This document shows, in pieces, positions 1-19,236 of a stretch of 34,442 bases of DNA. Both the position numbers and the translations under genes were made by a program. Source of the DNA: a virus; UHGV virus genome UHGV-0123328. The stretch is one strand, 5' to 3'. Below the pieces are notes generated by a model. That model was not told where the DNA came from. It did not search any database and was given only the letters and a program-made list of their open reading frames with translations. The stretch's first letter is position 1. Each line of letters starts with the position of its first letter.

Positions 1-1271
1 TGGACGCGCCGATTGGCTACATGGGTTCCTTCAAGAATCTGTGCGACAAGCGCGGCGATACCACCAGCTTCGATGAATACTGGAAGAAAGACTCCACCGC
101 CGAGCTGTACCACTTCATCGGTAAAGATATTGTTTACTTCCACAGCCTGTTCTGGCCTGCCATGCTGGAAGGCAGCAACTTCCGCAAGCCGTCCAACCTG
201 TTTGTTCATGGCTATGTGACGGTGAACGGCGCGAAGATGTCCAAGTCTCGCGGCACCTTTATTAAAGCCAGCACCTGGCTGAATCATTTTGACGCCGACA
301 GCCTGCGTTACTACTACACTGCGAAACTCTCTTCGCGCATTGATGATATCGATCTCAACCTGGAGGATTTCGTTCAGCGCGTGAATGCCGATATCGTGAA
401 CAAAGTGGTTAACCTGGCCTCCCGTAATGCAGGCTTTATCAACAAGCGTTTTGACGGCGTGCTGGCAAGCGAACTGGCTGACCCGCAACTGTACAAAACC
501 TTTACTGATGCCGCTGAAGTGATTGGCGAAGCATGGGAAAGCCGCGAATTTGGTAAAGCTATCCGTGAAATCATGGCATTGGCTGACCTGGCTAACCGCT
601 ATGTCGATGAACAGGCTCCGTGGGTGGTGGCGAAGCAGGAAGGACGCGATGCCGATCTGCAGGCGATTTGCTCTATGGGCATTAACCTGTTCCGCGTGCT
701 GATGACGTACCTGAAGCCGGTACTGCCGAAACTGACTGAACGTGCAGAAGCATTCCTGAATACAGAACTGACCTGGGATGGTATCCAGCAACCGCTGCTG
801 GGCCATAAAGTAAATCCGTTCAAGGCACTGTATAACCGCATCGATATGAAGCAGGTTGAAGCACTGGTGGAAGCATCCAAAGAAGAAGTGAAAGCCACAG
901 CCGCACCGGTAACTGGCCCACTGGCTGACGACCCGATTCAGGAAACTATCACCTTTGACGACTTCGCCAAAGTTGACCTGCGCGTGGCGCTGATTGAAAA
1001 CGCGGAGTTTGTTGAAGGTTCTGACAAACTGTTGCGCCTGACACTGGATCTCGGTGGTGAAAAGCGTAATGTCTTCTCAGGCATCCGTTCTGCTTATCCA
1101 GACCCACAGGCACTGATTGGTCGTCACACAATTATGGTGGCTAACCTGGCTCCGCGTAAGATGCGCTTCGGTATCTCTGAAGGCATGGTGATGGCTGCTG
1201 GCCCTGGCGGAAAAGATATCTTCCTGTTAAGCCCGGATGCTGGTGCTAAACCAGGCCACCAAGTTAAGTAA
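1..1271 (+). CDS. metG: Methionyl-tRNA synthetase, C-terminal portion (5' truncated by the window edge; reading frame begins at nt 3)
   Basis: Translation (…[19 protein letters not shown]…KMSKSRGTF…ending AKPGHQVK) matches the C-terminal region of enterobacterial MetG as I recall it, including the KMSKS class I synthetase motif and the C-terminal tRNA-binding domain. Uninterrupted ORF to the TAA at 1269-1271. Confidence 0.96.
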
Positions 1272-1902: not shown

Positions 1903-3093
1903 ATGACTGATACCGCTTTTTCAAAATCGTTACAAAAAGAAGTCGATCCTGAGCAGTACTTGGCGCTAAAGAATTTAGATGACAGCTCGGTTCATGCTAT
2001 TGCCCGTGACGATATCATCTGCCCCATTTGCAAAGTTGGAGGTGGTTCGTTCGTTAGAGCCACTAGGAATGGTGGCTATCACAAGAAGGCGCATTTCAGA
2101 TTTACCGGTGAAGATGGTCAAGGCCATCATCCATCATGTGATTTCTATGGAGATAGACTAACATCTGAGGTGAAGCAGCACCTTGTCTCATTCACAAAAG
2201 ATCGAACAAAGTATTCGCAGGTAATACGAAAGCTGGTCTGTGCCGGCATACAGGAAGGGATATTTACTCAAGAAAAAATGTGGCAGATGAGGGAATGGTT
2301 CTTCAATAAGCGAAAGGATTCCACATTTGAAATATGGTTAGAAAGCGAGCATTTAGACTGGCTTTATTATATTAGTGGGTTACGTGATGCATATCTAGCA
2401 TGGACAACTCCTGATATTCTACCTTTCGCGCCCATTCAGGTTACTGTGCCTGGTTTTTCTTGGAAGCGTGCGATTGACAAAGAGGTGCTAAGAGTTCACA
2501 TCAAGACTCTCCAGCAATTGCGTGAAATTTCAGTCTCACATAGAGACATTGCTGTAATCTTAGAACACATAAACAATAATCGTGACCGCACAATTCTCGA
2601 TCCATCGCATTTGGAGGACGAGATAAGTAAGACCTATAAGCTTACTAGTTTTGTGATGGGCAATTACATTGAGTTTCAGACAAAAACGGTTAGCGACAGA
2701 GCATACGGGGAAGCTAAGTTTCTGGCATTTGCAGCACTTTTGTTGTTCGTGTCAGATTGGGACCTCAACATTGCTATTGGTAAGTTTTCTAAGATTGCCA
2801 GAGTGAAGGAGGTTGATGACATGCTGGCTGGTAATTTCATTGGTCTTAATCCTTACTTCCGATACGACCTGGCTAATGCAGTGAAGAGATTGCAGGATAA
2901 CTGGCCGATTGAATACCAAGAGTTGGAGCATTGGAATGTTGAGAAATCCATGCGTGACGCATATGAAAAGTGGCGTGCGACAGAGCCTGAATTCGCTCCA
3001 CCCCTATTGCCAGACTTGTATATTGCCAAACATGAGAAAGAAGTCGCACAAGACGAGCAAGTCAGGCAGTGGATTGAGAACGGGGATGTTTGA
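1903..3093 (+). CDS. Hypothetical protein with N-terminal Cys/His cluster (396 aa from ATG 1903; alternative ATG 1864 gives 409 aa)
   Basis: Long ORF in a roughly 42% GC region; GGAG 6 nt upstream of ATG 1903. N-terminal CPIC…H…HHPSC arrangement suggests a zinc-binding ribbon. No other motif recognised. Confidence 0.6.
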   Translation: MTDTAFSKSLQKEVDPEQYLALKNLDDSSVHAIARDDIICPICKVGGGSFVRATRNGGYHKKAHFRFTGEDGQGHHPSCDFYGDRLTSEVKQHLVSFTKDRTKYSQVIRKLVCAGIQEGIFTQEKMWQMREWFFNKRKDSTFEIWLESEHLDWLYYISGLRDAYLAWTTPDILPFAPIQVTVPGFSWKRAIDKEVLRVHIKTLQQLREISVSHRDIAVILEHINNNRDRTILDPSHLEDEISKTYKLTSFVMGNYIEFQTKTVSDRAYGEAKFLAFAALLLFVSDWDLNIAIGKFSKIARVKEVDDMLAGNFIGLNPYFRYDLANAVKRLQDNWPIEYQELEHWNVEKSMRDAYEKWRATEPEFAPPLLPDLYIAKHEKEVAQDEQVRQWIENGDV

Positions 3094-3229
3094 GTGTAAT
3101 TAGCTTAATCAATCAGTTGATAATGGCGGTCACAATTTGATTCTTTTCTATAAGAATCCGTTGATCGCCACTACTCTTCTTCCATACCTGCAATCATACC
3201 CTTAAATATCAATAGGTTACTGTTGTTTA

Positions 3230-3990
3230 AGCCAATAAGAAAACAACTAAATAACAGATCAACGAAACATCAACGCTTTCACCCGATTTGGTCTAAAAAA
3301 TTGACGTTTTCACACATCACTGCTTATACCCGTAATTCTACACAGCAGACAGCGCCACAGCGTCCAATTTTCACCACAGACGACCCAACACACTACCAAC
3401 AAAAACACACGCTCAAAATCGCTCCCGTTGCGTTACACAACCATATAAACAACTTATTTTCAGGTATAACAAAACAACTAAATAACACATATGCCATTCC
3501 CCATAACAACCAACCTCTTTATGGCAGGCTACCGAAAAGACCCACCTCTTCTTCTCAGGCTATCGGACAACCAACCTAACTTTCACAGGCAATCCGAAAA
3601 CATTCATACGCGCAATACCCACGACACGCCATTACCCAAACAGCGAAGAAACACCAGAATCACTGAAACCCCAACGAAGCCTGTAACCGCAAGGTTTCTC
3701 TCAATCCCAAAAGACACGAAACATAACAATCACGGGAAACGCCATTACCCAATACACGAATAACTACAAAAGCCCTTCACGCACTCCAGACAAACAACTC
3801 AAACACAATAACGAAAGCAATCGCCCACCTGCCATTACTCCATACACGGAGAAGAACAATCACCAAAACGACGAGAACACCCCATAGAAGAACCACCGCA
3901 AAACGAACGAAACCACATACACCGACAGAGAGAACAACACGCCCAATTCACCAACAGAAATAGTCGCCGTATAGAACGTTCTGGAAGGGG
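3230..3990 (+). other. A+C-rich, G-depleted non-coding tract with three copies of a GCCATTAC(C/T)C-N-ATACACG motif
   Basis: Extreme strand compositional skew visible by eye. Motif copies at about 3626-3641, 3738-3758 and 3829-3849. Only low-complexity ORFs on the plus strand and none of 60 aa or more on the minus strand. Confidence 0.6.
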
Positions 3991-4174
3991 GTGAGCATTA
4001 ACGCCTATAGAGAGGTTGAGACAGATAAAACACGAAGAAAACACAACATGTATAGCGAAGAAGCAAGGTATGTATAAGTGGGGAGGGAAGGAGGGGTGTC
4101 GCCTCCTTTTTCGTATTTATTCAACTCCTGATTTTATCCCCCGTAACACCCCTACGGTCAGCCTTCGGTCCATA

Positions 4175-4309
4175 CAGGGAAAAGGCTGCATCCCGCTACA
4201 GAAACGGCTGGGTTGCCTTCGGGGAACGGCTGGGGATTTTCAGGGAAACGGTCGAGTTGCCTGTGTGGATTTCGGGAAAAGGCTCGATGCCGGTTCAGGA
4301 ACGGCGGCG
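4175..4309 (+). repeat. Iteron-like direct repeat array 1 (six copies of C(A/G)GGRAAMRGC at 21-32 bp spacing)
   Basis: Copies start at 4175, 4199, 4220, 4241, 4273 and 4296: cagggaaaaggctg, cagaaacggctgg, cggggaacggctgg, cagggaaacggtcg, cgggaaaaggctcg, caggaacggcggcg. Confidence 0.7.
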
Positions 4310-4622
4310 TACCGGTATAGCGAGAGGGAGAGTTGCGGCTACCCACCTGTAATGTGCGGGAAGAAGAGAGGCGCTCACGTGCAGGCGAACTTACTTACCG
4401 CTGGATTCCCTCTGAATGCCCAGCTACAGCGTAATTGTGCCAGACAGCCAACGGGTCACAATCGATTTCAGTAGGTTTTCGGGGAGATGATTATTCTGCC
4501 CACCAGCCACCTTCGGCCACTAAATCAGAATAATGTAAAAAGTGTACTCGGTACTGAACCTGAAAACTCACTGCCAAAACCACATTCACCGGAATAAAAT
4601 CCTTTTTCGCCTGTGCGTTATT

Positions 4623-4660
4623 GCGATAATAACACCAACGAGAAAACAAGTTGTTTAAGG
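4623..4660 (+). promoter_or_regulatory. Conserved promoter/operator-like module, copy 1 (GCGATAAT…AGAAAACAAGTTGTTTAAGG; palindrome 4644-4656)
   Basis: Nearly identical to the copies at 6760-6796 and 7245-7284. Palindrome AAACA-agt-TGTTT ends 12 nt before ATG 4669. Confidence 0.6.
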
Positions 4661-4668
4661 ATTGCTTT

Positions 4669-4998
4669 ATGTTTGCAAATATCGACATCAACCAAATCAA
4701 GAAATTAACTCAAAAAGAGTTTGATCAGTTTTATGAGTTAGAAGGTTGGTCTTCCACTCTGATCAATTCGCGGTGGGTGCTTGAGCTGATGACTCGTGAT
4801 GACGCACCTGCTTTGATGATTTGCGACATGGGTGAAGATGCTGACTTTATGGATATGAGCGAATTTTGTGTGGACACATACAACCGCAGCCAGAAGTACT
4901 ACTTCACATGCGATAGCGAAAATGACGTGATTTCTAAGGTCTATCTTCACCTCGTCCAGCATTGGGACGTTCAGGAGTTTCTTGAAGTATTCGAGTAA
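4669..4998 (+). CDS. Hypothetical small protein (109 aa; ORF track starts at TTG 4651)
   Basis: ORF with AAGGA Shine-Dalgarno 8 nt upstream of ATG 4669; conserved upstream module; stem-loop 5008-5026 downstream. Confidence 0.6.
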   Translation: MFANIDINQIKKLTQKEFDQFYELEGWSSTLINSRWVLELMTRDDAPALMICDMGEDADFMDMSEFCVDTYNRSQKYYFTCDSENDVISKVYLHLVQHWDVQEFLEVFE

Positions 4999-7097: not shown

Positions 7098-7125
7098 TTA
7101 AGGCCACCAATGCTGGTGGCCTTAA
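7098..7125 (+). terminator. Stem-loop TTAAGGCCACCA-atgc-TGGTGGCCTTAA
   Basis: 12-bp perfect stem, compensatory to the 6627-6654 copy (A:T pair replaced by G:C). Confidence 0.5.
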
Positions 7126-7244
7126 ATGACCATCCTGTTTCCCGCAGGCTAAAAACACCAACCTCTTACCTCCAGGCAACCGACAAACCCACCTGTTCCC
7201 GTCCGGCTACCGCAACTTTCCACTTTGACGCCTTATTCGTACAA

Positions 7245-7813: not shown

Positions 7814-7830
7814 ATAGCCACCAGCTGCCG

Positions 7831-7910
7831 CAGGGAAATTTTCAGAAACGGCGAGGAACGTATTCATGAGCCGACGGGAAACGGCCAGGATTTTTTCGGG
7901 AAACGGCGGG
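7831..7910 (+). repeat. Iteron-like direct repeat array 2 (four copies; same family and orientation as 4175-4309)
   Basis: cagggaaatt, cagaaacggcgagg, cgggaaacggccagg, cgggaaacggcggg. Extended match GGATTTT(TT)C(A/G)GGGAAACGG shared with array 1. Confidence 0.7.
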
Positions 7911-9614: not shown

Positions 9615-10136
9615 TTAAAACGGAAGGATTCGTTCAACCCAATCGAAGAAAATAAGAATTTTTCTGCCGTCTTTCAACTTAAGTGTGACTAGGCAGGCAT
9701 CAACGCCATCTGACGTTCCCTCAATTTCGCGGCCGTCTGCCATGTAGACCCTTATAGATTGGCCGTTTTGATAAGCCTTGCGACATATCTTAAAAAAATC
9801 ACGACGTGATGGCTGGTTGTCTACATAGTCAGGGTGTATTGTTAGTCTCCCTTTGAAATCGTAATCAATGCCATCAATTACGCCTGATTCAATTGTGCTA
9901 ATGCGCTCAAGTGGGAGCCTTATACGATTTTCTTTGTCAAATGGAGTTGGACAAAGGTCAACTTTGTTACGAGATGACATGAGACCATAAACGTACATGC
10001 AAAACACTTGGCCGTCTTCGAGAGTGACTCTTACAGGAAATTTAGCCCCCCGCCAGAAGAGCAAGGTGCGTTCAGCATGTTCGTAGTCTCGCGGCCATAC
10101 TTCAGCCGGTATGCCGTAGGTGATGTCTTTAACCAT
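9615..10136 (-). CDS. Hypothetical protein (173 aa) with an internally repeated (R)VxLxDG motif
   Basis: ORF with its own terminator. Motifs VRVTLEDGQ, IRVYMADGR and VTLKLKDGR suggest repeated small beta-rich units. Confidence 0.6.
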   Translation of the reverse strand: MVKDITYGIPAEVWPRDYEHAERTLLFWRGAKFPVRVTLEDGQVFCMYVYGLMSSRNKVDLCPTPFDKENRIRLPLERISTIESGVIDGIDYDFKGRLTIHPDYVDNQPSRRDFFKICRKAYQNGQSIRVYMADGREIEGTSDGVDACLVTLKLKDGRKILIFFDWVERILPF

Positions 10137-13900: not shown

Positions 13901-13982
13901 AAACCTCTTTCCTTAGTGCCTTTTGTATGTTATTTGGCTATTATAATAAGTAAGTGATTACTTAGTGGATTGTAGCAATAAA

Positions 13983-14663
13983 ATGGATGTAAAAATCACG
14001 ATTTTGCAGGTTGATGTTGCCAACCTTCGCCCGAATACCTGGAACACCAATTCGGTTGGTGCGCAGAATTTTGAAAAACTGAAAGGTTCTATCGAAAAAT
14101 TGGGCTTTTTTAAGCCAATTTTGGCTCGTGAACTTGAAGATGGATTTTTTGAAATCCTCGGCGGCGAACATCGCTGGCGTGCTGCTATTGAGCAAGGAAT
14201 TTCAACGGTTCCGGTGCTTTCTGTGGGCAAAATTAGCGATGTCGTAGCTAAACAGATGTCACTGGTGGACAACGAGCGATACGGTGAAGACGACCAAATC
14301 GCATTGCAACGCTTCATTGAAGAAATTCAGTCAGAACTTGACTATCAACTGTCTGAAATCGCCCCGTATGACGACGAAATCTCGATGGTTTTAGCAAAAG
14401 AGGCGGCAATCGACCTTGAAGCACTGGAGGCGTTGTCTCGTGGTAGTGATGAGCCTGTCGATACCGACAAACGAGAGAAAACCGAACGTGTCGGTGCGGA
14501 ACATCAGACCATGCGCTTCAAAGTAACTTTCGATGCGTCAGATCGCGTTGCAGAAACCATAAAAAACATCATCAAAGACCAGGCAATTAATACTGGCAAT
14601 GAAATGGAAAACGCTGGTGAGGCTCTGGTGTGGCTGGTCGACTACTACAAGGAGCGTATGTAA
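13983..14663 (+). CDS. ParB/Srx N-terminal-domain protein 1 (227 aa from ATG 13983; ORF track starts at GTG 13965)
   Basis: ParB-like N-terminal signature region (…FEILGGEHRWRAAIEQGISTVPV…); acidic C-terminal half. Confidence 0.65.
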   Translation: MDVKITILQVDVANLRPNTWNTNSVGAQNFEKLKGSIEKLGFFKPILARELEDGFFEILGGEHRWRAAIEQGISTVPVLSVGKISDVVAKQMSLVDNERYGEDDQIALQRFIEEIQSELDYQLSEIAPYDDEISMVLAKEAAIDLEALEALSRGSDEPVDTDKREKTERVGAEHQTMRFKVTFDASDRVAETIKNIIKDQAINTGNEMENAGEALVWLVDYYKERM

Positions 14664-15331
14664 TGACCAAAAAGTTTGAAATCGTATATCGCGACCCGGC
14701 AGATCTTATTCCCTATGAGATGAATGCCAAAAAGCATGATGAACAGCAGATCCGAGATCTGGCCGCAGCCATTAAAAAGCGCGGATTTGACCAGCCAATT
14801 ACGGTCGATAAGAACGACGTAATTATTACTGGCCACGGCCGCCGTGAGGCTGCAATTTTTGCTGGACTTGAGCGCGTACCGGTTATTGTTCGCGATGATC
14901 TCAGTGATGACGAGGTTCGTGCGAAGCGCCTTGAAGATAACCGACTTGCCAGCATTGATTACGATGCAATTAAGCTACAGAAAGAGCTTGAGTCGCTTGT
15001 TCTGGACGATATCGAGGTTTTCGGCTTCGAAGAGCGTGAGTTGAATGTTCTCGTTGGCAGTATGACAGAAGAAATGGACACCGACTCGCTAGTTATCGAT
15101 CTTGGCGAAGAAACTAAACGACAGAAGGATGAACACACCGAGATCAGTCGTGAAGTTGCAGCGGAAGAAGTACGTGTTGTCGACGTATTGGGCTTTAAAA
15201 CGCTCCCTGCTGGCTCTGCCATTGTTGTTGGTGATTTGCTTGCCCATATGGAAGAAATGACGGGAGAAAGCGGGGTAGACGCATTTGTGGCATATGCGGA
15301 GAAGATCTCTTCCGGGGAGATGGCTGCATGA
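14663..15331 (+). CDS. ParB/Srx N-terminal-domain protein 2 (222 aa; ORF track start 14630)
   Basis: …ITGHGRREAAIFAGLERVPVIV… ParB-like motif. ATG overlaps the upstream stop (TAATG), with AAGGAG Shine-Dalgarno. Confidence 0.65.
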   Translation: MTKKFEIVYRDPADLIPYEMNAKKHDEQQIRDLAAAIKKRGFDQPITVDKNDVIITGHGRREAAIFAGLERVPVIVRDDLSDDEVRAKRLEDNRLASIDYDAIKLQKELESLVLDDIEVFGFEERELNVLVGSMTEEMDTDSLVIDLGEETKRQKDEHTEISREVAAEEVRVVDVLGFKTLPAGSAIVVGDLLAHMEEMTGESGVDAFVAYAEKISSGEMAA

Positions 15332-15993
15332 GCAAATACATCATCAACGTATCGTTTCAGACACGCGTAAATAAAACCACGCGCACGTTGGAAATCGCTG
15401 AGTCGTTCGGGCTTGGCCTGGACGAAAAAGAGTGGACGCTTTACGACAATCTGGAGCTGGAAGTGAAGCAGGGCGATGTGGTGTACATCACCGGCCAATC
15501 CGGTTCCGGCAAATCCGTTGTGCTGCGCGAGTTGCAACGACAGATGAAGGATGAAGGGCTGTCTGTAGCCTCCATCGATGATTTTACCTTCGATAATGAG
15601 GTTAACGTCATCGATCAGTTGGGCAAAACGACCAGTGATGCGCTTGGGTTGTTATCTATGGCTGGTCTGAACGATGCATATCTGTTTGTTCGCAAGCCTT
15701 CTGAAATGTCAGACGGCCAGAAATATCGTCTCAAGATTGCCAAACTGATTGAGTCAGGCGCTAAAGTATGGGCTGCTGACGAGTTCGGCGCTGTTCTCGA
15801 CCGTGTAACCGCTCAGGTTGTGGCGTCTAACCTCCAGCGTGCCGCTCGAAAGGTTGGTGCGACGGTAATGGTGGCGACGACTCACGAAGACCTGAAGAAC
15901 GCGCTGCGCCCTGATATGCAGATCACCAAGCACTACAAAGAACGCGTGAAGGTGGAATATCACAATGGTAGTCATGATGAGGTCCATTCATGA
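15328..15993 (+). CDS. Minimal ABC-type ATPase (221 aa, nucleotide-binding domain only)
   Basis: Walker A GQSGSGKS, ABC signature-like MSDGQKYRL, Walker B VWAADEF and H-loop ATTHE in canonical order. Start overlaps the upstream stop (ATGA). Confidence 0.7.
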   Translation: MSKYIINVSFQTRVNKTTRTLEIAESFGLGLDEKEWTLYDNLELEVKQGDVVYITGQSGSGKSVVLRELQRQMKDEGLSVASIDDFTFDNEVNVIDQLGKTTSDALGLLSMAGLNDAYLFVRKPSEMSDGQKYRLKIAKLIESGAKVWAADEFGAVLDRVTAQVVASNLQRAARKVGATVMVATTHEDLKNALRPDMQITKHYKERVKVEYHNGSHDEVHS

Positions 15994-16607
15994 CGGACAT
16001 CATCATTAAACGCTACCGCCCTGAAGAGTTTCCGCGTCATCTGGACTTTCTGGAGCGAATGACTGTTACAAAGGGAACTGTAGAGGACTGGCACGCTCTT
16101 AAGTCGCTTCACTACAAAACAGACGGCAAACCTTTCGCGCCAACTTACTATCGCTGCGAACTTGATGACCGTCTGGTGGGCGTCGTGGTTATGGCTTACC
16201 CGAAACTACTGTTGGCACCTCGCCACCGCATGTTTCCTAAGTTGAAACCAACCACTAATACCACCGTGGCTAACCAGTACTGGGGTCGGTACGTGAATAA
16301 CAACTTTGCGGTGATCAGTCGCTCAGTTGTGGATACTCAGTATCGTGGCGTAGGCGTCTCTTATAGAATGATTAACCTGGTTAGCAGGATGCATGACCGG
16401 CCAATCATTGAGATCCAGTCCTCGATGAGCAAATACAATCCCTTCGCCATGAAAGCAGGGTTTAAGTTCATCCGCCCTGAGCGACCGAAGAGCTATGAAA
16501 GTGCACTGCGTGTATTCCAGCGCCATTTCCGTTCCGACCCGGGTGATAACGAGGCGATCGTCAAAGAGTTGTTCGCAATGAGCGAGTCTCGTCGTCGCCG
16601 TGCGTGA
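15990..16607 (+). CDS. GNAT-fold (acetyltransferase-like) protein (205 aa)
   Basis: Motif-A-like VVDTQYRGVGVSYRMINLV and motif-B-like NPFAMKAGFKFI. Start overlaps the upstream stop (ATGA). Confidence 0.5.
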   Translation: MTDIIIKRYRPEEFPRHLDFLERMTVTKGTVEDWHALKSLHYKTDGKPFAPTYYRCELDDRLVGVVVMAYPKLLLAPRHRMFPKLKPTTNTTVANQYWGRYVNNNFAVISRSVVDTQYRGVGVSYRMINLVSRMHDRPIIEIQSSMSKYNPFAMKAGFKFIRPERPKSYESALRVFQRHFRSDPGDNEAIVKELFAMSESRRRRA

Positions 16608-16875
16608 TCTGGTGGCGGACTACCACAAGAACAGTTCCCTGGCAAAAGCTGGGCGGAATCGTGGCACGACGATTCAGGACATTGCCGACAGTCTGGTGGA
16701 CGAGGCCAGCATTGTGAAGCTGCTCAAGGACATTCACAACCTGAGCTTTACGTCTCCGTTGTATGGTGTGTATCGAAACCCTGACTTTGGTCGTCGACTG
16801 CCTGACACGCTGCCACTGCTGGCATTCGACAAACAACCTTTGGATAAACCGTTGGAAATTGCTTTACCGGCATAA
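16600..16875 (+). CDS. Hypothetical small protein (91 aa, GTG start overlapping the upstream gene by 8 nt)
   Basis: ORF continuing the operon; no recognisable motif. Confidence 0.45.
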   Translation: MRDLVADYHKNSSLAKAGRNRGTTIQDIADSLVDEASIVKLLKDIHNLSFTSPLYGVYRNPDFGRRLPDTLPLLAFDKQPLDKPLEIALPA

Positions 16876-16884
16876 GGATTTGCC

Positions 16885-17151
16885 ATGACGTTAACCGATA
16901 AACAAAAGGACATCATCAAAACGCTCAATCTCGGTTATGAGCGAGGTCATCTACTTGATCTGGACGAATTGCTTGAAGTTTTGCCGTACAAGACAACAAA
17001 GCAAAGTATCCAGTTCTCAATTCGCGCTCTGATAAAAAAGGGGCTGGTGGAGAAAGGGCATACGCGCCAACGCAGTGACAATCGCTATCACCGCCGGACT
17101 CTTGGGTTAACCACTTTAGGTCGAGCCAAAGCGAAGTTACTGGTGATGTAA
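16885..17151 (+). CDS. Small basic protein with a possible helix-turn-helix (88 aa); candidate regulator
   Basis: ORF 10 nt after the previous gene; the segment TTKQSIQFSIRALIKKGLV resembles an HTH recognition helix. Sits immediately upstream of the large palindrome and packaging genes. Confidence 0.45.
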   Translation: MTLTDKQKDIIKTLNLGYERGHLLDLDELLEVLPYKTTKQSIQFSIRALIKKGLVEKGHTRQRSDNRYHRRTLGLTTLGRAKAKLLVM

Positions 17152-17175
17152 TCGGTCTGGGAGCTTATTTAAAGA

Positions 17176-17230
17176 CCTGCTTCTGTATATATAAATAATA
17201 AGTAACTTATTAAATATATACGGAAGCAGG
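17176..17230. promoter_or_regulatory. Large imperfect palindrome (about 27-bp arms, CCTGCTTC…GGAAGCAGG) centred on AATAAGTAACTTATT
   Basis: Arms CCTGCTTCTGTATATATAAATAATAAGT and ACTTATTAAATATATACGGAAGCAGG. Located between the regulator-like gene and the small terminase gene. Confidence 0.6.
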
Positions 17231-17347
17231 CTTAGTAAGACATGCCCAGACCTAATTAAACACCCCAGAAAACAAGTTGGTTAGCAGATGCAGTAAACAA
17301 GTTGTTTTAGAGCGCATGGACGCGCTCTGTGTGTTTTAGAGGGATCT

Positions 17348-17980
17348 ATGACGGTCGAAAAAGACGAGGTAAAAACTCGCCTGACACCAGCGGAGTGGGC
17401 CGAAGCTGAAGCCAAATGGACGTCAGGCGAATATACACTCTCAAAGCTGGAGGAAGAGTACGGCATTCGTCGTGAAACACTCTCCAGACATTTCAAAAAG
17501 CGAGGATTAGAGAAAGGCGCGGACTCTGTTGGGAAGATGGTTCGTGAGTCTCTTAAATCTGACGCAGAGCTTCGCGCTAAAGCCCGTGCGGAAAAGATAG
17601 AAGAACGTCGTACACGTTATGACGGCTGGGCGTATGCGTTGGGGCAGATGGTGATGGTCGAAGTCACTACGGCCAAACGTGAGGGTAAGCCTTTAGGGGC
17701 GATTGAGGATTCTCTCAAGAGCTTACAGAGAGCCAGTAATACCCTTGCAAAATGCTTTGAAGTTTCGTCCAAAGCATTGGGCATGGATCATGCGGAAAAT
17801 GACGAGGAAGAAATTCCGAACCTGGTATTTGGTGAGCTTACGCCTTCCCAGGTGGCGAAATTACGTCAGGAAGACGACGAGCCTGAAATCATCGATGACG
17901 AATTGCTTGAGACGTTGGAAGAAGAAGCTCTAAGCGAATTTGATGCGACAGATGATGGAAGTGAAGGGGAGGACGAATAA
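17348..17980 (+). CDS. Terminase small subunit (210 aa), putative
   Basis: Immediately upstream of and overlapping the large terminase (TAATG). N-terminal helix-turn-helix-like segment (YTLSKLEEEYGIRRETLSRHFKKRG) and strongly acidic C-terminus. Confidence 0.6.
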   Translation: MTVEKDEVKTRLTPAEWAEAEAKWTSGEYTLSKLEEEYGIRRETLSRHFKKRGLEKGADSVGKMVRESLKSDAELRAKARAEKIEERRTRYDGWAYALGQMVMVEVTTAKREGKPLGAIEDSLKSLQRASNTLAKCFEVSSKALGMDHAENDEEEIPNLVFGELTPSQVAKLRQEDDEPEIIDDELLETLEEEALSEFDATDDGSEGEDE

Positions 17981-19236
17981 TGGCAATCCCGTCCTCGCTC
18001 AGTCTTGTGCAACTGCATTCTGGACAGATGAAAGTCTTCCAGTCTCCGCATCGATTTAAAGTTGTTTGTGCTGGTCGACGCTGGGGAAAATCCCGGTTGT
18101 CGATCTCCACTATTATTCGTGCGGCGGCAAAGGAAAAAAAGCAAAGAGTCTGGTATGTCGCTCCTACTTACCAGATGGCTCGCCAGATTTTGTGGGACGA
18201 TCTACAGGAAGTTCTGCCTCGTAAGTGGGTTAGGAAAAAGAACGACACCACGATGACAATCGTGTTGAAGAACGGTTCGGAGATCGCCCTCAAAGGTGCT
18301 GATAAGCCTGACACTCTGCGCGGCGTAGCGTTGCATTTTGTAGTGCTTGATGAATTTCAGGATATGAAGGCTGACACCTGGTACAAGGTGTTACGACCTA
18401 CTCTTTCATCGACACGCGGCGGTGCACTGATCATTGGTACGCCAAAAGGCTTCTCGGAATTTCACAAACTGTGGACTATAGGCCAGAACGTAGAGCTGCA
18501 AAGAAAGGGACAGTGGAAGAGCTGGCAGTTTGTAACTGCCGATTCTCCGTTTGTACCTACGGCGGAAATTGAAGCTGCTAAGAACGATATGGACCCGAAA
18601 TCGTTCGCTCAGGAGTACCTGGCGAGCTTTGAGAACATGTCAGGGCGCGTTTACTACCCGTTCGATCGTAACGTGCATGTAAAACCGCTTCAGTTCAACC
18701 CTCGGTTGCCTATATGGGTAGGGCAGGACTTCAACATTGACCCGATGTCTTCAGTAATTTTGCAACCTCAGCCAAATGGTGAGCTATGGGCAATTGATGA
18801 ATTGGTGCTCTTTTCCTCTAACACGGCAGAGGTTTGTGATGAGCTTGAGAGACGCTTCTGGCGCTGGAAATCACAGATAACGGTATTTCCAGATCCGGCA
18901 GGTGCTTATCGCCAACATGCTCGCGGGGAGTCTGACGTCGACATATTCAAAGAGAAGGGATTCTTACGTGTCGATTATTCGAAAAAGCACCCGCCAATTG
19001 CGGATCGTGTTAATGCTGTTAACCGAATGCTGATGACCGCATCTGGAGATATCCGGCTGTATATCGATCCGAAGTGCAAGCATTTGATTGATTCACTGGA
19101 AAAAGTCATCTACAAGCCTGGAACACGAGATATGGATAAGACAGGTGGCATTGAGCATAGTGCAGACGCATTGGGCTATCCAGTACATCGTAGGTATCCA
19201 GTCAAAAACCGTGTTATTCTTGGTGGTTCTCGATAG
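17980..19236 (+). CDS. Terminase large subunit (418 aa)
   Basis: Walker A VCAGRRWGKS and Walker B HFVVLDEF in the N-terminal ATPase; Asp-rich RNase H-like C-terminal nuclease region; position before the portal gene. Confidence 0.85.
   Translation: MAIPSSLSLVQLHSGQMKVFQSPHRFKVVCAGRRWGKSRLSISTIIRAAAKEKKQRVWYVAPTYQMARQILWDDLQEVLPRKWVRKKNDTTMTIVLKNGSEIALKGADKPDTLRGVALHFVVLDEFQDMKADTWYKVLRPTLSSTRGGALIIGTPKGFSEFHKLWTIGQNVELQRKGQWKSWQFVTADSPFVPTAEIEAAKNDMDPKSFAQEYLASFENMSGRVYYPFDRNVHVKPLQFNPRLPIWVGQDFNIDPMSSVILQPQPNGELWAIDELVLFSSNTAEVCDELERRFWRWKSQITVFPDPAGAYRQHARGESDVDIFKEKGFLRVDYSKKHPPIADRVNAVNRMLMTASGDIRLYIDPKCKHLIDSLEKVIYKPGTRDMDKTGGIEHSADALGYPVHRRYPVKNRVILGGSR

Follow-up and report, generated by a model that had tools for sequence, protein, structure and literature searches.

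Introduction

Rho-dependent terminators and attenuators, for instance tR1 of phage lambda with its rutA and rutB sites or the leaders of mgtA, corA and rho, are untranslated and unstructured, rich in C and poor in G. Iteron-containing origins that are activated by transcription or primed by RNA are known from lambda (ori/pR), P1 (oriL/P53), ColE1 (RNA II) and P4, in which ori and crr are two separated arrays. The sponge RNAs CsrB/CsrC, RsmY/Z and CrcZ are long and non-coding and contain numerous short repeats that share one orientation. Finally, the injection-stop (first-step-transfer) region of T5, a large siphovirus, is gene-free over more than 1 kb and contains many direct and inverted repeats; to our knowledge, no strand asymmetry is known for it.

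We analysed a window of 34,442 nucleotides (virus genome UHGV-0123328), the sequence of an SSU5/pHCM2-type phage-plasmid, which contains a non-coding tract (3338-3990, + strand) that is rich in A and C, poor in G and T, structure-free and almost devoid of start codons. Like Rho terminators, this tract lies untranslated between transcription units, and in vivo the transcript signal falls steeply where the tract begins. Unlike known rut regions, it is 5-8 times longer, is also depleted in U and has a conserved length, and it comes with repeat families that are conserved, with internal operator sites and with promoter-like elements of its own. As in the transcription-activated origins, a putatively repressor-controlled promoter-like element precedes 22-bp-phased repeats by several hundred nt, two arrays lie kilobases apart, and RNase HI and an own replisome are encoded; however, the iterons bear no relation to those of the resident RepA, no initiator was found among the neighbours, and in contrast to the highly structured ColE1 RNA II the leader is poor in G and unstructured. 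The tract is also as long, non-coding and rich in same-orientation repeats as the sponges, but GGA in loops and AANAANAA are not enriched, there are no hairpins presenting a motif, and it is silent in lysogens. With the T5 region the module shares the absence of genes over more than 1 kb and the many direct and inverted repeats, and in the SSU5 record its distance to one end is ~12 kb; this is a resemblance only.

Phage-plasmids of the SSU5/pHCM2 type occur frequently in clinical Escherichia, Klebsiella, Enterobacter and Salmonella and bring resistance genes with them. Literature searches returned no description of the tract and no detailed account of the lysis-lysogeny switch or lytic origin of these elements. 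If the tract gates transcription through Rho, it would show how arbitrary cargo can be taken up without transcription leaking into lytic functions; should it instead belong to the lytic origin or encode an RNA decoy, the inability of a sequence to pair would itself be what selection had favoured, which would be a new principle of design. Either way, it offers clear targets for experiment.

Results

The tract belongs to a core module of SSU5/pHCM2-type phage-plasmids

The tract is part of an unannotated module of 1.5 kb (3112-4668), present in 826 plasmids from at least six enterobacterial genera. The original prediction had assumed a prophage, and this setting had to be corrected to a phage-plasmid, as 249 placements fell on plasmids and none on chromosomes. 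The module is a core part of the SSU5/pHCM2-type phage-plasmids and their largest conserved non-coding region, and the tract occupies the same place in hundreds of them. In the RefSeq entries (PGAP) for the most similar plasmids, the 1.4-kb query has no annotated CDS. The upstream ORF of 396 aa (1903-3093) is real. Relatives swap it for unrelated genes and retain the non-coding module, so the link that had been drawn between the tract and this gene does not hold. The module lies exactly between a variable cargo island expressed in lysogens and the operator-controlled early genes; searches of the neighbouring proteins in Pfam, PHROGs, NCBIfam and PDB gave no functional lead.

In all lineages the tract measures 652-713 nt, with G fractions of 0.13-0.19, T fractions of 0.14-0.18 and a C/G ratio of 1.5-2.5, and the A+C bias is also present at variable alignment columns. 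A distant clade without alignable tract sequence keeps the architecture, composition and length. Within the E. coli lineage, pi was 0.027 in the tract, 0.034-0.072 at third codon positions and 0.066-0.106 in neighbouring spacers. With a diversity 2.5-4 times below that of the spacers and below that of third codon positions, the tract is, on this measure, under purifying selection. That it is a decayed gene or a functionless by-product of mutation bias is hardly credible. Long accidental ORFs, some of them annotated by depositors, would fit such an origin; the low diversity, the persistence of architecture, length and composition in the unalignable clade, and the lack of similarity to the 160-aa gene of a paralogous module speak against it. 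We likewise rejected a pseudogene copy of this 160-aa gene, as the tract and the paralogous module share only repeat, iteron and operator elements.

The tract is extreme in composition, non-coding and unstructured

Across 3230-3990, A+C rises to 76%; in 300-nt windows the maximum of 0.76 stands against 0.50 ± 0.04 for the window (z 5.9). The base fractions of the tract proper are 0.395 (A), 0.325 (C), 0.133 (G) and 0.147 (T). In 200-nt windows over 3201-3900 we observed a GC skew of -0.39 to -0.52 and an AT skew of +0.22 to +0.60, both of which reverse to a G-rich state past ~3950, and C/G was 2-5 in every 78-nt window between 3120 and 3900. This agrees with the G-depleted, A+C-rich + strand and the subsequent G-rich switch that had been described, as well as with the G-run string, GTGGGGAGGGAAGGAGGGGTG, which we found at 4078-4098. 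In a 112-kb plasmid 99.6% identical to the window, of which about 105 kb were scanned, A+C never exceeds 0.62 elsewhere, and the tract is the sole extreme of A+C and strand asymmetry in this replicon. An explanation by replication skew was rejected, because along the rebuilt plasmid the cumulative GC skew runs monotonically and reaches its extremes at repA.

Start codons are depleted about 12-fold in the tract (4.6 per kb vs 56 per kb), and Shine-Dalgarno-like motifs occur at 1.5 per kb vs 9 per kb. No reading frame is conserved: stops occur in all six frames in 29/29 lineages, and 1-nt indels and frameshifts split relatives that are 95% identical, for which we rejected a protein-coding reading. 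Long chance ORFs arise in the tract because T and G are rare, and the ORFs that some depositors annotated are absent from close relatives. A conserved low-complexity protein was looked for and none was found; the region is indeed non-coding, as the original prediction had it.

The tract hardly folds. Its folding energy is -0.117 kcal/mol/nt, compared with -0.300 ± 0.033 for 20 background segments, and the tracts of relatives reach -0.15 to -0.21 kcal/mol/nt. The folding z was -0.45 on the + strand and +0.2 on the - strand. Neither conserved structure nor covariation was found inside the tract, with an RNAalifold SCI of at most 0.1 across 3458-3990, and Rfam gave zero matches at the gathering score; at E ≤ 10, two weak matches at chance level, far under the gathering score, fell outside the tract. 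A structured non-coding RNA, one of the options first considered for this region, was rejected on these grounds.

Sponges for CsrA or Hfq fared no better. A CsrA sponge was suggested by AUACAcGGA, which resembles the SELEX consensus, and was rejected as GGA is not enriched (4 motifs vs 5.8 ± 1.7 in shuffles; 6.1 per kb vs 14 per kb in the remaining window). A CrcZ-like Hfq/Crc sponge was also rejected with its motifs at shuffle level, namely two AANAANAA sites for 2.1 expected and one (ARN)n with n ≥ 4 for 0.8 expected.

Operator-flanked promoter-like elements at the left boundary

Homology to all relatives begins at 3112, directly after the variable cargo genes, with a hairpin or inverted repeat that we call Block A (3112-3171, + strand). 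RNAfold predicts it in every lineage, at -13 to -20 kcal/mol. Its outer stem pairs GGCGGTCA (3125-3132) with TGATCGCC (3162-3169) and its inner stem GATTCTT (3139-3145) with AAGAATC (3152-3158); the stems enclose a conserved TTTCTATAAG, and a C/T-rich run comes next. The inner stems are lineage-specific, and the outer stem of the distant clade is wholly different (GTCAACCTCT/AGAGGTTGAT). The following C-rich, G-poor linker (3172-3235, + strand; CCCCACCCCTCCAACC... in relatives) is poorly conserved and has the highest pi within the E. coli lineage (0.106).

The linker is followed by an operator-like site, AAGAAAACAACTAAATAACA (3237-3256, + strand), near-invariant in 29 lineages. A genuine promoter-operator located elsewhere in the plasmid has 19 nt in common with it, its counterpart in the distant clade is a full palindromic operator, AAGAAAACAACTTGTTTG, and an exact 16-nt repeat of it occurs 231 bp downstream, at 3472. 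The site looks like a degenerate early promoter-operator with no gene after it. Two direct repeats TCAACG (3259-3264 and 3270-3275, + strand) are found in all lineages including the distant clade, with inverted CGTTGAY copies at ~3114, 3159 and 3300, the first of which reads CGTTGAC in relatives and AGTTGAT in the window.

A promoter-like element occupies 3301-3330 (+ strand), with TTGACG (3301-3306), a spacer of 17 nt and TTATAC (3324-3329), or else a spacer of 18 nt and TATACC. An A-tract lies just upstream and the predicted start is at ~3336-3338. The hexamers are near-invariant in the 29 lineages, with a spacer that varies in sequence and is constant in length, and the distant clade has TTGACA-N17-TTACAC. 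A consensus promoter scan did not call this element, since its -10 lacks the final T. Operator-like sites flank it on both sides; these operator-flanked promoter-like elements, which belong to the tract itself, had been overlooked. On the other side of the tract, no minus-strand promoter was called, and candidates picked by eye were weak and not conserved.

A possible Rho-dependent gate between cargo and early genes

Published strand-resolved RNA-seq data (GSE154648) are available for Cyrano (OV696614), a phage-plasmid 96.7% identical to the window, in five lysogen conditions. The upstream gene CYRAN_102 reaches a log2(FPKM+5) of 9.2 (~585 FPKM), and its transcript ends no later than 3223, close to or at the conserved boundary hairpin. 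Over CYRAN_103, which corresponds to window positions 3223-3579 and takes in the first third of the tract, the values remain at 2.32-4.27 (0-14 FPKM). The first 240 nt past the putative start are nearly free of reads in 5/5 conditions, and the sequence downstream of this start remains near-silent even when the neighbouring early gene CYRAN_105 rises about 30-fold. The original prediction presupposed transcription across the region; in lysogens, the + strand was silent over the 3223-3579 stretch covered.

The reading that we prefer, tentatively and at less than an even chance, is that the tract is an untranslatable, structure-free leader or insulator for Rho loading, which controls the entry of transcription into the region of the iterons and early genes. 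It would be the main part of a transcription unit that is non-coding and under repressor control, and polymerase would arrive either out of the variable cargo island or from the promoter-like elements (~3237 and 3301-3330). Made on the + strand almost only of A and C, the RNA would be unable to pair, nearly lack starts and Shine-Dalgarno motifs, and have C in excess of G over ~650-700 nt. Polymerase in the tract would be uncoupled from ribosomes, and the transcript would expose a continuous surface for Rho loading, so that the tract may act as a Rho-dependent barrier or attenuator. In lysogeny, this barrier would shield the G-run/iteron block and the early-lytic genes from transcription; in lytic growth, transcription would pass only once termination is overcome. 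Firing of the promoter-like elements, action of Rho at this site and regulated read-through are our inferences.

On the + strand the tract shows every sequence feature of a Rho substrate, in line with the earlier proposal; it is not, as also claimed, an appendage of the 396-aa gene. A Rho gate is favoured by the excess of C over G, the low folding energy, the scarcity of starts and Shine-Dalgarno motifs, the lack of a conserved frame, the A+C bias kept even in the unalignable clade, the low pi, the conserved hexamers with operator-like sites on either side, the place of the module between cargo and early genes, and the contrast between CYRAN_102 and CYRAN_103. Several observations weigh against a Rho gate. 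A rut site needs ~80-150 nt and not 700, and the 750 nt are not needed to stop upstream transcripts, as these have already ended by 3223 at the hairpin. Depletion of U is not a requirement of Rho, the conserved length and the repeat families (the 33-nt unit and GCCATTAC) are not explained by Rho loading, and the promoter-like element has a -10 without the usual final T and is followed by 240 near-silent nt. Antitermination sites of the nut/boxB or ops type were also considered; sites with a partial likeness by eye were rejected, as they are not conserved in the lineage of the window.

Repeat families inside the tract

The thrice-repeated motif noted earlier was recovered. Copies of GCCATTACYC(M)AWACACG(GAGAAGAAC) lie on the + strand at 3628-3656, 3741-3769 and 3831-3859 and are conserved in relatives; the three GCCATTACYC..ACACG matches compare with 0.12 expected, and 0/100 shuffles reach three. 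A degenerate fourth copy is present at 3493-3502 (+ strand). Relatives carry two additional GCCATTACYC copies, SSU5 having five, and in the distant clade the GCCAT core occurs three times (two exact GCCATT(A/C)C and one found by eye). The view that these repeats are not random drift is borne out by their retention in relatives. Distances between the GCCATTAC repeats are irregular and do not follow the helical phase.

The earlier inventory was right about these three copies and missed further families, i.e. a 33-nt unit and the operator-like sites at 3237, 3446 and 3471. Three tandem units of ~31-33 nt, ACC(C/A)ACCTCTT-N5-CAGGCTACCGAAAAG, span 3509-3601 (+ strand) and sit in helical phase (~31 bp). 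In the window and in SSU5 the unit is also found three times at 7129-7212, before the promoter of the 160-aa gene. Repeat copy number varies between lineages, and Tandem Repeats Finder reported no repeats. An internal operator-like pair consists of the palindrome TAAACAACTTATTTTCA (3446-3462) and AAAACAACTAAATAACA (3471-3487). It matches the dispersed operator GAGAAAACAAGTTGTTTA, of which the window has seven sites against 0.06 expected, is kept in relatives as TAAACAAGTTGTTTTCA, and gives, over 3446-3487, a local conserved palindrome signal in the structure analysis of relatives. At the 3' end of the tract, a block TTCACC..AGAAATAGTCGCCGTATAGA.CGTT (3945-3982, + strand) shows a conservation of 0.88-0.90.

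Such repeats would also suit a trans-acting non-coding RNA of ~750 nt, made early in lytic growth, that serves as a structure-free scaffold or decoy, a reading we consider unlikely. Its motifs (CAGGCUACC, GCCAUUACYC..ACACGGAG and the operator copies) would titrate a host or phage factor that binds single-stranded RNA, with Rho itself or an FljA-like regulator as candidates. Short, irregular repeats of one orientation and lineage-dependent number in an unstructured RNA point in this direction, as do early-type promoter-operator elements with no gene behind them, a terminator-like hairpin at 4085-4112 in the window lineage, and a PF03614 (FljA-like) regulator encoded 5.5 kb downstream. FljA acts on the 5' leaders of mRNAs. 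However, CsrA-type GGA and Hfq-type (ARN)n and AANAANAA motifs are at shuffle level, the hairpin is weak and without covariation outside the window lineage, no Rfam family matches, and the predicted RNA has never been seen. A further, rather improbable reading is that a two-letter, non-pairing alphabet was selected as such, the A/C-only early-lytic RNA of ~750 nt either decoying Rho or another factor or acting as a naked leader that fires a lytic origin.

The G-run block, the iterons and the right boundary

Past the tract, GTATAAG, the G-run block (4078-4098) and a pyrimidine arm cover 4068-4112 (+ strand). In the window lineage, a terminator scan called a terminator-like hairpin followed by TTTTT at 4085-4112. 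In relatives the hairpin is predicted in all lineages but is weak, with a consensus of -6.3 kcal/mol and a G-U-dependent stem, and compensatory pairs amount to 0/9. A switch by long-range pairing of the G-run block with the 33-nt repeats was rejected: the duplexes reach -22 to -29 kcal/mol, and dinucleotide shuffles are equally good. A conserved A+T-rich block, CGTATTTATTCAA..TGATTTTATCCCCCGTAAC (4113-4146, + strand), is also present in the distant clade.

Six iteron-like repeats, G(G/A)RAA(A/C)MGGCTG, follow at 4177-4310 (+ strand), spaced by 22-23 bp with one gap of ~31 bp; they adjoin the tract, and none of the six lies inside it. A second array of the same motif is found 3.6 kb away, at 7830-7910. 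At the same place, the distant clade has different 22-bp-phased repeats, four copies of TTTGGGAAG. The iterons do not match those of RepA (ATCCACTRTAGAGAG-type), and repA is 33 kb away, for which reasons we rejected a plasmid origin or a RepA copy-control array.

These arrays raise the possibility, on the doubtful side, that the whole 1.5-kb module is a lytic origin (ori-lyt) with its control region, the tract being a protein-binding platform or a leader. Transcribing the tract from a repressor-controlled promoter would then switch on or prime the G-run/iteron block beside it. Among the proteins of the element are RNase HI and a replisome of its own (DnaE, DnaB-like helicase, primase, ligase), and it has a separate plasmid replicon as well, with repA 33 kb away, from which it follows that a second, lytic origin must exist somewhere. 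Six repeats phased by ~22 bp directly after the tract and a second array 3.6 kb off would be apt for such an origin, and the differing repeats of the distant clade behave like iterons co-evolving with an initiator; the uniqueness of the tract in the genome, its conserved length and the helical phase of the 33-nt units point the same way. On the other hand, no initiator gene was found among the neighbours with Pfam, PHROGs, NCBIfam or PDB, neither a DnaA-box cluster nor a clear unwinding element was found, and the cumulative GC skew has no signal at the tract. In addition, DNA-binding arrays need no strand-asymmetric composition over 800 bp, the GCCATTAC repeats are irregular and out of phase, a G-poor RNA disfavours R-loops, and Rho would remove a C-rich RNA before the iterons.

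Direct-repeat arrays are also typical of centromeres. The plasmid has two ParB-family genes and ParA/MinD-like ATPases, and no canonical parABS was seen beside repA in the parts inspected. It is nevertheless very improbable that the module is a partition centromere or nucleoprotein site for the two ParB-like proteins (13965-15331): the arrays lie 10 kb away from their genes, and strand asymmetry and promoter-operator elements would be left unexplained.

The right boundary of the module (4622-4668, + strand) consists of an extended -10 promoter, TGcGATAAT (4622-4630), the operator GAGAAAACAAGTTGTTTA (4640-4657) and a Shine-Dalgarno sequence, after which the first small early gene begins with an ATG at 4669.

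The tract belongs to a conserved phage-plasmid module

We compared the 1.4 kb around the A+C-rich tract (about 3230-3990) with sequence databases. The region matches 243 complete E. coli genomes, always on plasmids of about 110 kb and never on a chromosome, and no annotated feature underlies it among the best matches listed. The phage records matched are Cyrano (96.7% identical), CMS-2020a, PhiR41_1 and Klebsiella phage-plasmids, and Salmonella phage SSU5 matches at 67.7% over 88% of the region. By these plasmid-only and phage matches, the window is an SSU5/pHCM2-type phage-plasmid. In PLSDB, 826 plasmids match the region (Klebsiella, Escherichia, Enterobacter, Salmonella, Citrobacter, Cronobacter and others), as do Kluyvera and Buttiauxella genomes and IMG/VR contigs. 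For comparison, we retained 29 non-redundant regions, 59-97% identical. A literature search found no paper describing the region.

Among relatives, homology starts sharply at about 3112 and the gene on the 5' side varies: it encodes the 396-aa protein (1903-3093 in the window), a GIY-YIG nuclease with a hypothetical protein, DUF1380 proteins, or is a DUF262 gene on the opposite strand. The tract is thus not the tail of the 396-aa gene, since that gene is swapped while the conserved module begins at about 3112. On the 3' side, small genes of unknown function are accompanied by a PF03614 (FljA-like) regulator, ParB-like genes, and terminase and virion genes; the neighbouring proteins gave no functional lead for the tract. 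Directly upstream of the cargo island are metG, encoding a full methionyl-tRNA synthetase, and an ApbC/MinD-like ATPase gene (window 21-1271 and upstream; 14881-18172 in the related sequence L004); in Cyrano lysogens the ATPase gene is expressed at about nine times background. In the 205-kb K. michiganensis plasmid pJNQH491-1 (L018) just the first 460 bp of the module are left, beside a DUF262 gene and a type I restriction-modification system; this piece is what remains of a phage-plasmid that became fused with a large plasmid.

The module opens with a boundary hairpin around TTTCTATAAG (3112-3171; about 2873-2956 in IMG/VR contig L117 and 2700-2785 in L126, from a distant clade), whose loop is constant and whose stems differ by lineage. 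In L117, homology ends exactly at this loop. Because of this break and the switching stems, the hairpin may mark a junction for recombination or cargo exchange, or a site for a recombinase, besides being a terminator.

The tract keeps its composition and is under selection

The original prediction described an A+C-rich, G-depleted stretch switching abruptly to G-rich sequence, and skew and windowed composition confirmed it. GC skew is -0.39 to -0.52 and AT skew +0.22 to +0.60 across 3201-3900, and both reverse after about 3950. Base fractions over 3338-3990 are A 0.395, C 0.325, G 0.133 and T 0.147; A+C peaks at 0.76 in 300-nt windows, compared with 0.50 ± 0.04, and never exceeds 0.62 elsewhere in about 105 kb of a 99.6%-identical plasmid. 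The predicted thrice-repeated motif was recovered as GCCATTACYC..ACACG at 3628, 3741 and 3831 (three matches versus 0.12 expected by chance), and the G-run string at 4078-4098. A replication-skew origin of the asymmetry gave no signal and was dropped.

Every lineage has 0.13-0.19 G, 0.14-0.18 T and a tract of 652-713 nt, and the bias persists where alignment columns vary (A 0.31, C 0.34, G 0.19, T 0.15). In the distant clade, in which identity of the flanking 103-aa protein falls to about 50%, the tract interior has no alignable similarity. This clade keeps the TTTCTATAAG hairpin with a different, still pairing outer stem, a full operator, two TCAACG repeats, TTGACA-N17-TTACAC, and a tract of about 690 nt (63-71% A+C) that contains internal operators and the motifs CAGGCA and GCCATT. 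In place of the G-run block, the sequence turns abruptly G-rich and bears four TTTGGGAAG copies at 22-bp spacing (L126 3615-3690), which look like another iteron family in the equivalent place; also present are the conserved A+T block, the early promoter and GRAAACGG iterons.

Among 28 sequences of the E. coli lineage, nucleotide diversity in the tract is 0.027, versus 0.034-0.072 at third codon positions in the next two genes and 0.066-0.106 in neighbouring spacers. The tract is under purifying selection, which makes a lack of any function scarcely credible. As a family-wide feature the tract is real and selected; its mechanism is a proposal.

The tract is neither coding nor structured

Stops occur in all six frames within 3335-3990 in 29 of 29 lineages, so a protein-coding tract was rejected; a pseudogene reading also failed. 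Long plus-strand ORFs shift frame between relatives 95-96% identical (217 aa versus 86 aa, for example), and arise by chance because T is rare here and stop codons need T. No frame is kept across the 29 lineages, and a conserved low-complexity protein is absent from the relatives, as the non-coding prediction implied.

A structured non-coding RNA, also proposed, did not hold up when both strands were folded: 3338-3990 (653 nt) gave -76 kcal/mol (z = -0.45) on the plus strand and -170 kcal/mol (z = +0.2) on the minus strand. Per nucleotide, the tract folds at -0.117 kcal/mol, versus -0.300 ± 0.033 for 20 other window segments; relatives' tracts fold at -0.15 to -0.21. Sliding RNAalifold gave SCI ≤0.1 across 3458-3990, with local signals confined to the boundary hairpin, the operator palindrome and the G-run hairpin. 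The last resembles an intrinsic terminator in the window lineage and is weak across lineages (-6.3 kcal/mol, 0 of 9 pairs compensatory). Rfam gave no match at gathering score and two weak, chance-level ones at E ≤10, both outside the tract.

Operator-like sites flank a promoter-like element

Downstream of the hairpin and a variable C-rich linker (3172-3235) come an operator-like site (3237-3256), two TCAACG repeats (3259 and 3270) and a promoter-like element, an A-tract followed by TTGACG-N17-TTATAC (3301-3330). In the 29 regions its hexamers are near-invariant; spacer length is kept and spacer sequence varies. Within the tract lie an internal operator pair (3446-3487), three 31-33-nt units (3509-3601), the GCCATTAC repeats (3628-3859; two further copies in relatives) and a conserved block (3945-3982). 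A variable stretch (3991-4067) leads to GTATAAG, the G-run block and a pyrimidine arm (4068-4112), a conserved A+T-rich block (4113-4146) and six iteron-like repeats 22-23 bp apart (4177-4310). After a second variable stretch (4330-4600), an extended -10 promoter, operator and Shine-Dalgarno sequence (4622-4668) directly precede the first small gene. In SSU5, pHCM2, and E. asburiae and Citrobacter relatives, this second stretch, between the iterons and the early promoter, holds an extra small minus-strand ORF (L002 7409-7651, L009 2930-3172, L015 2924-3166, L010 2935-3273), absent from the window lineage; transcripts of this ORF would extend leftward into the iterons and tract.

The palindromic operator GAGAAAACAAGTTGTTTA occurs seven times in the window (0.06 expected). 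A scan with AAGAAAACAAnTTGTTTA of a 112-kb plasmid assembled from the window together with L004, L016 and L017 gave 26 hits, palindromes being counted on both strands, or about 20 distinct sites; those in the window include 1355, 3446, 4640, 5124, 6777, 7262, 17266 and 17291. Most are on the plus strand; a -10-like element (extended -10 TGnGATAAT) lies about 9 nt 5' of the site, and a Shine-Dalgarno sequence with ATG follows 10-25 nt 3' of it. Such dispersed operators, reminiscent of those of P1 C1, define a genome-wide early regulon; candidate binders are an HTH repressor or the FljA-like regulator. A 173-aa protein (9615-10136, minus strand) matches PF03614, repressor of phase-1 flagellin, FljA (2e-79). 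Salmonella FljA acts on an mRNA leader and, since an FljA-like protein is encoded here, operators adjoining Shine-Dalgarno sequences might act at the RNA level.

The 3237 site resembles a promoter-operator of the early regulon, with no gene after it. Together with 3446/3471 it flanks the TTGACG..TTATAC element on both sides, and the window holds two identical 16-mers 231 bp apart, a layout that would permit repression through DNA looping.

The plus strand of the tract is silent in lysogens and may load Rho

Strand-resolved RNA-seq of E. coli LF82 carrying Cyrano covers five conditions (PMC9928086, S1 Table). CYRAN_103, corresponding to window 3223-3579 (plus strand), has a log2(FPKM+5) of 2.32 in LB, meaning zero reads, and at most 4.27 across the conditions, while upstream CYRAN_102 reaches 5.6-9.2 (PMC9928086). 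CYRAN_104 (about 4070-4474) shows 2.6-4.7, and CYRAN_105 up to 7.5-7.8 in macrophages (PMC9928086). Because CYRAN_103 is near zero while CYRAN_102 is expressed, the plus strand of the tract, as read from 3223-3579, is silent in lysogens, and cargo-gene transcription reaches no further than 3223, stopping at the boundary hairpin and C-rich linker.

C exceeds G by two- to fivefold in all 78-nt windows of 3120-3900. Start codons number 4.6 per kb in the tract versus 56 elsewhere, and Shine-Dalgarno-like motifs 1.5 versus 9. A and C cannot pair with each other, and RNA without G and U lacks AUG, GUG and UUG, Shine-Dalgarno sequences and U-tracts; naked C>G RNA is a textbook substrate for Rho. The A/C alphabet would thus yield naked RNA suited to Rho. 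We tentatively favour, at somewhat less than even chances, an untranslatable, structure-free, Rho-loading leader or insulator: transcribed only with the operators unoccupied, it would control the passage of transcription into the G-run/iteron block and early genes. The Rho idea of the original prediction is the best available but only partly supported, agreeing with the composition and the lack of structure and coding; conserved length, repeat families and U depletion are left unexplained.

Asymmetry between the strands suggests that selection acts on just one of them, with RNA the likelier target because DNA-binding arrays need no such asymmetry. A trans-acting early RNA serving as decoy or scaffold appears improbable, and a centromere-like site far more so. 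A CsrA and Hfq sponge was dropped, the motifs not being enriched, as was long-range pairing between the G-run block and the 33-nt repeats, which equalled or fell below shuffles.

A second module and replication context

The element encodes DnaE, a DnaB-like helicase, primase, ligase, 5'-3' exonuclease and RNase HI, so that a distinct lytic origin is to be expected. RepA is 33 kb distant, and the RepA iterons (ATCCACTRTAGAGAG) bear no relation to the GRRAAMMGGC repeats of the module. That the tract is part of this origin, with transcriptional activation or priming, is a rather doubtful reading, behind Rho loading and ahead of a trans-acting RNA.

A paralogous module has three 33-nt units at 7129-7212, directly 5' of the promoter of its 160-aa gene, and an iteron-like array at 7830-7910 (GGGAAACGGC twice, 22 bp apart, plus CAGAAACGGCG); SSU5 has both. 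In both modules the array follows the 33-nt units by about 700 nt. Chi octamers (GCTGGTGG) occur at 4500-4507 (minus strand), kept in E. coli and Klebsiella lineages within an otherwise variable spacer, and at 7111-7118 (plus strand), where the octamer contributes to a terminator hairpin. In the distant clade, the corresponding spacer likewise contains Chi and its complement (L126, about 4008 and 4058).
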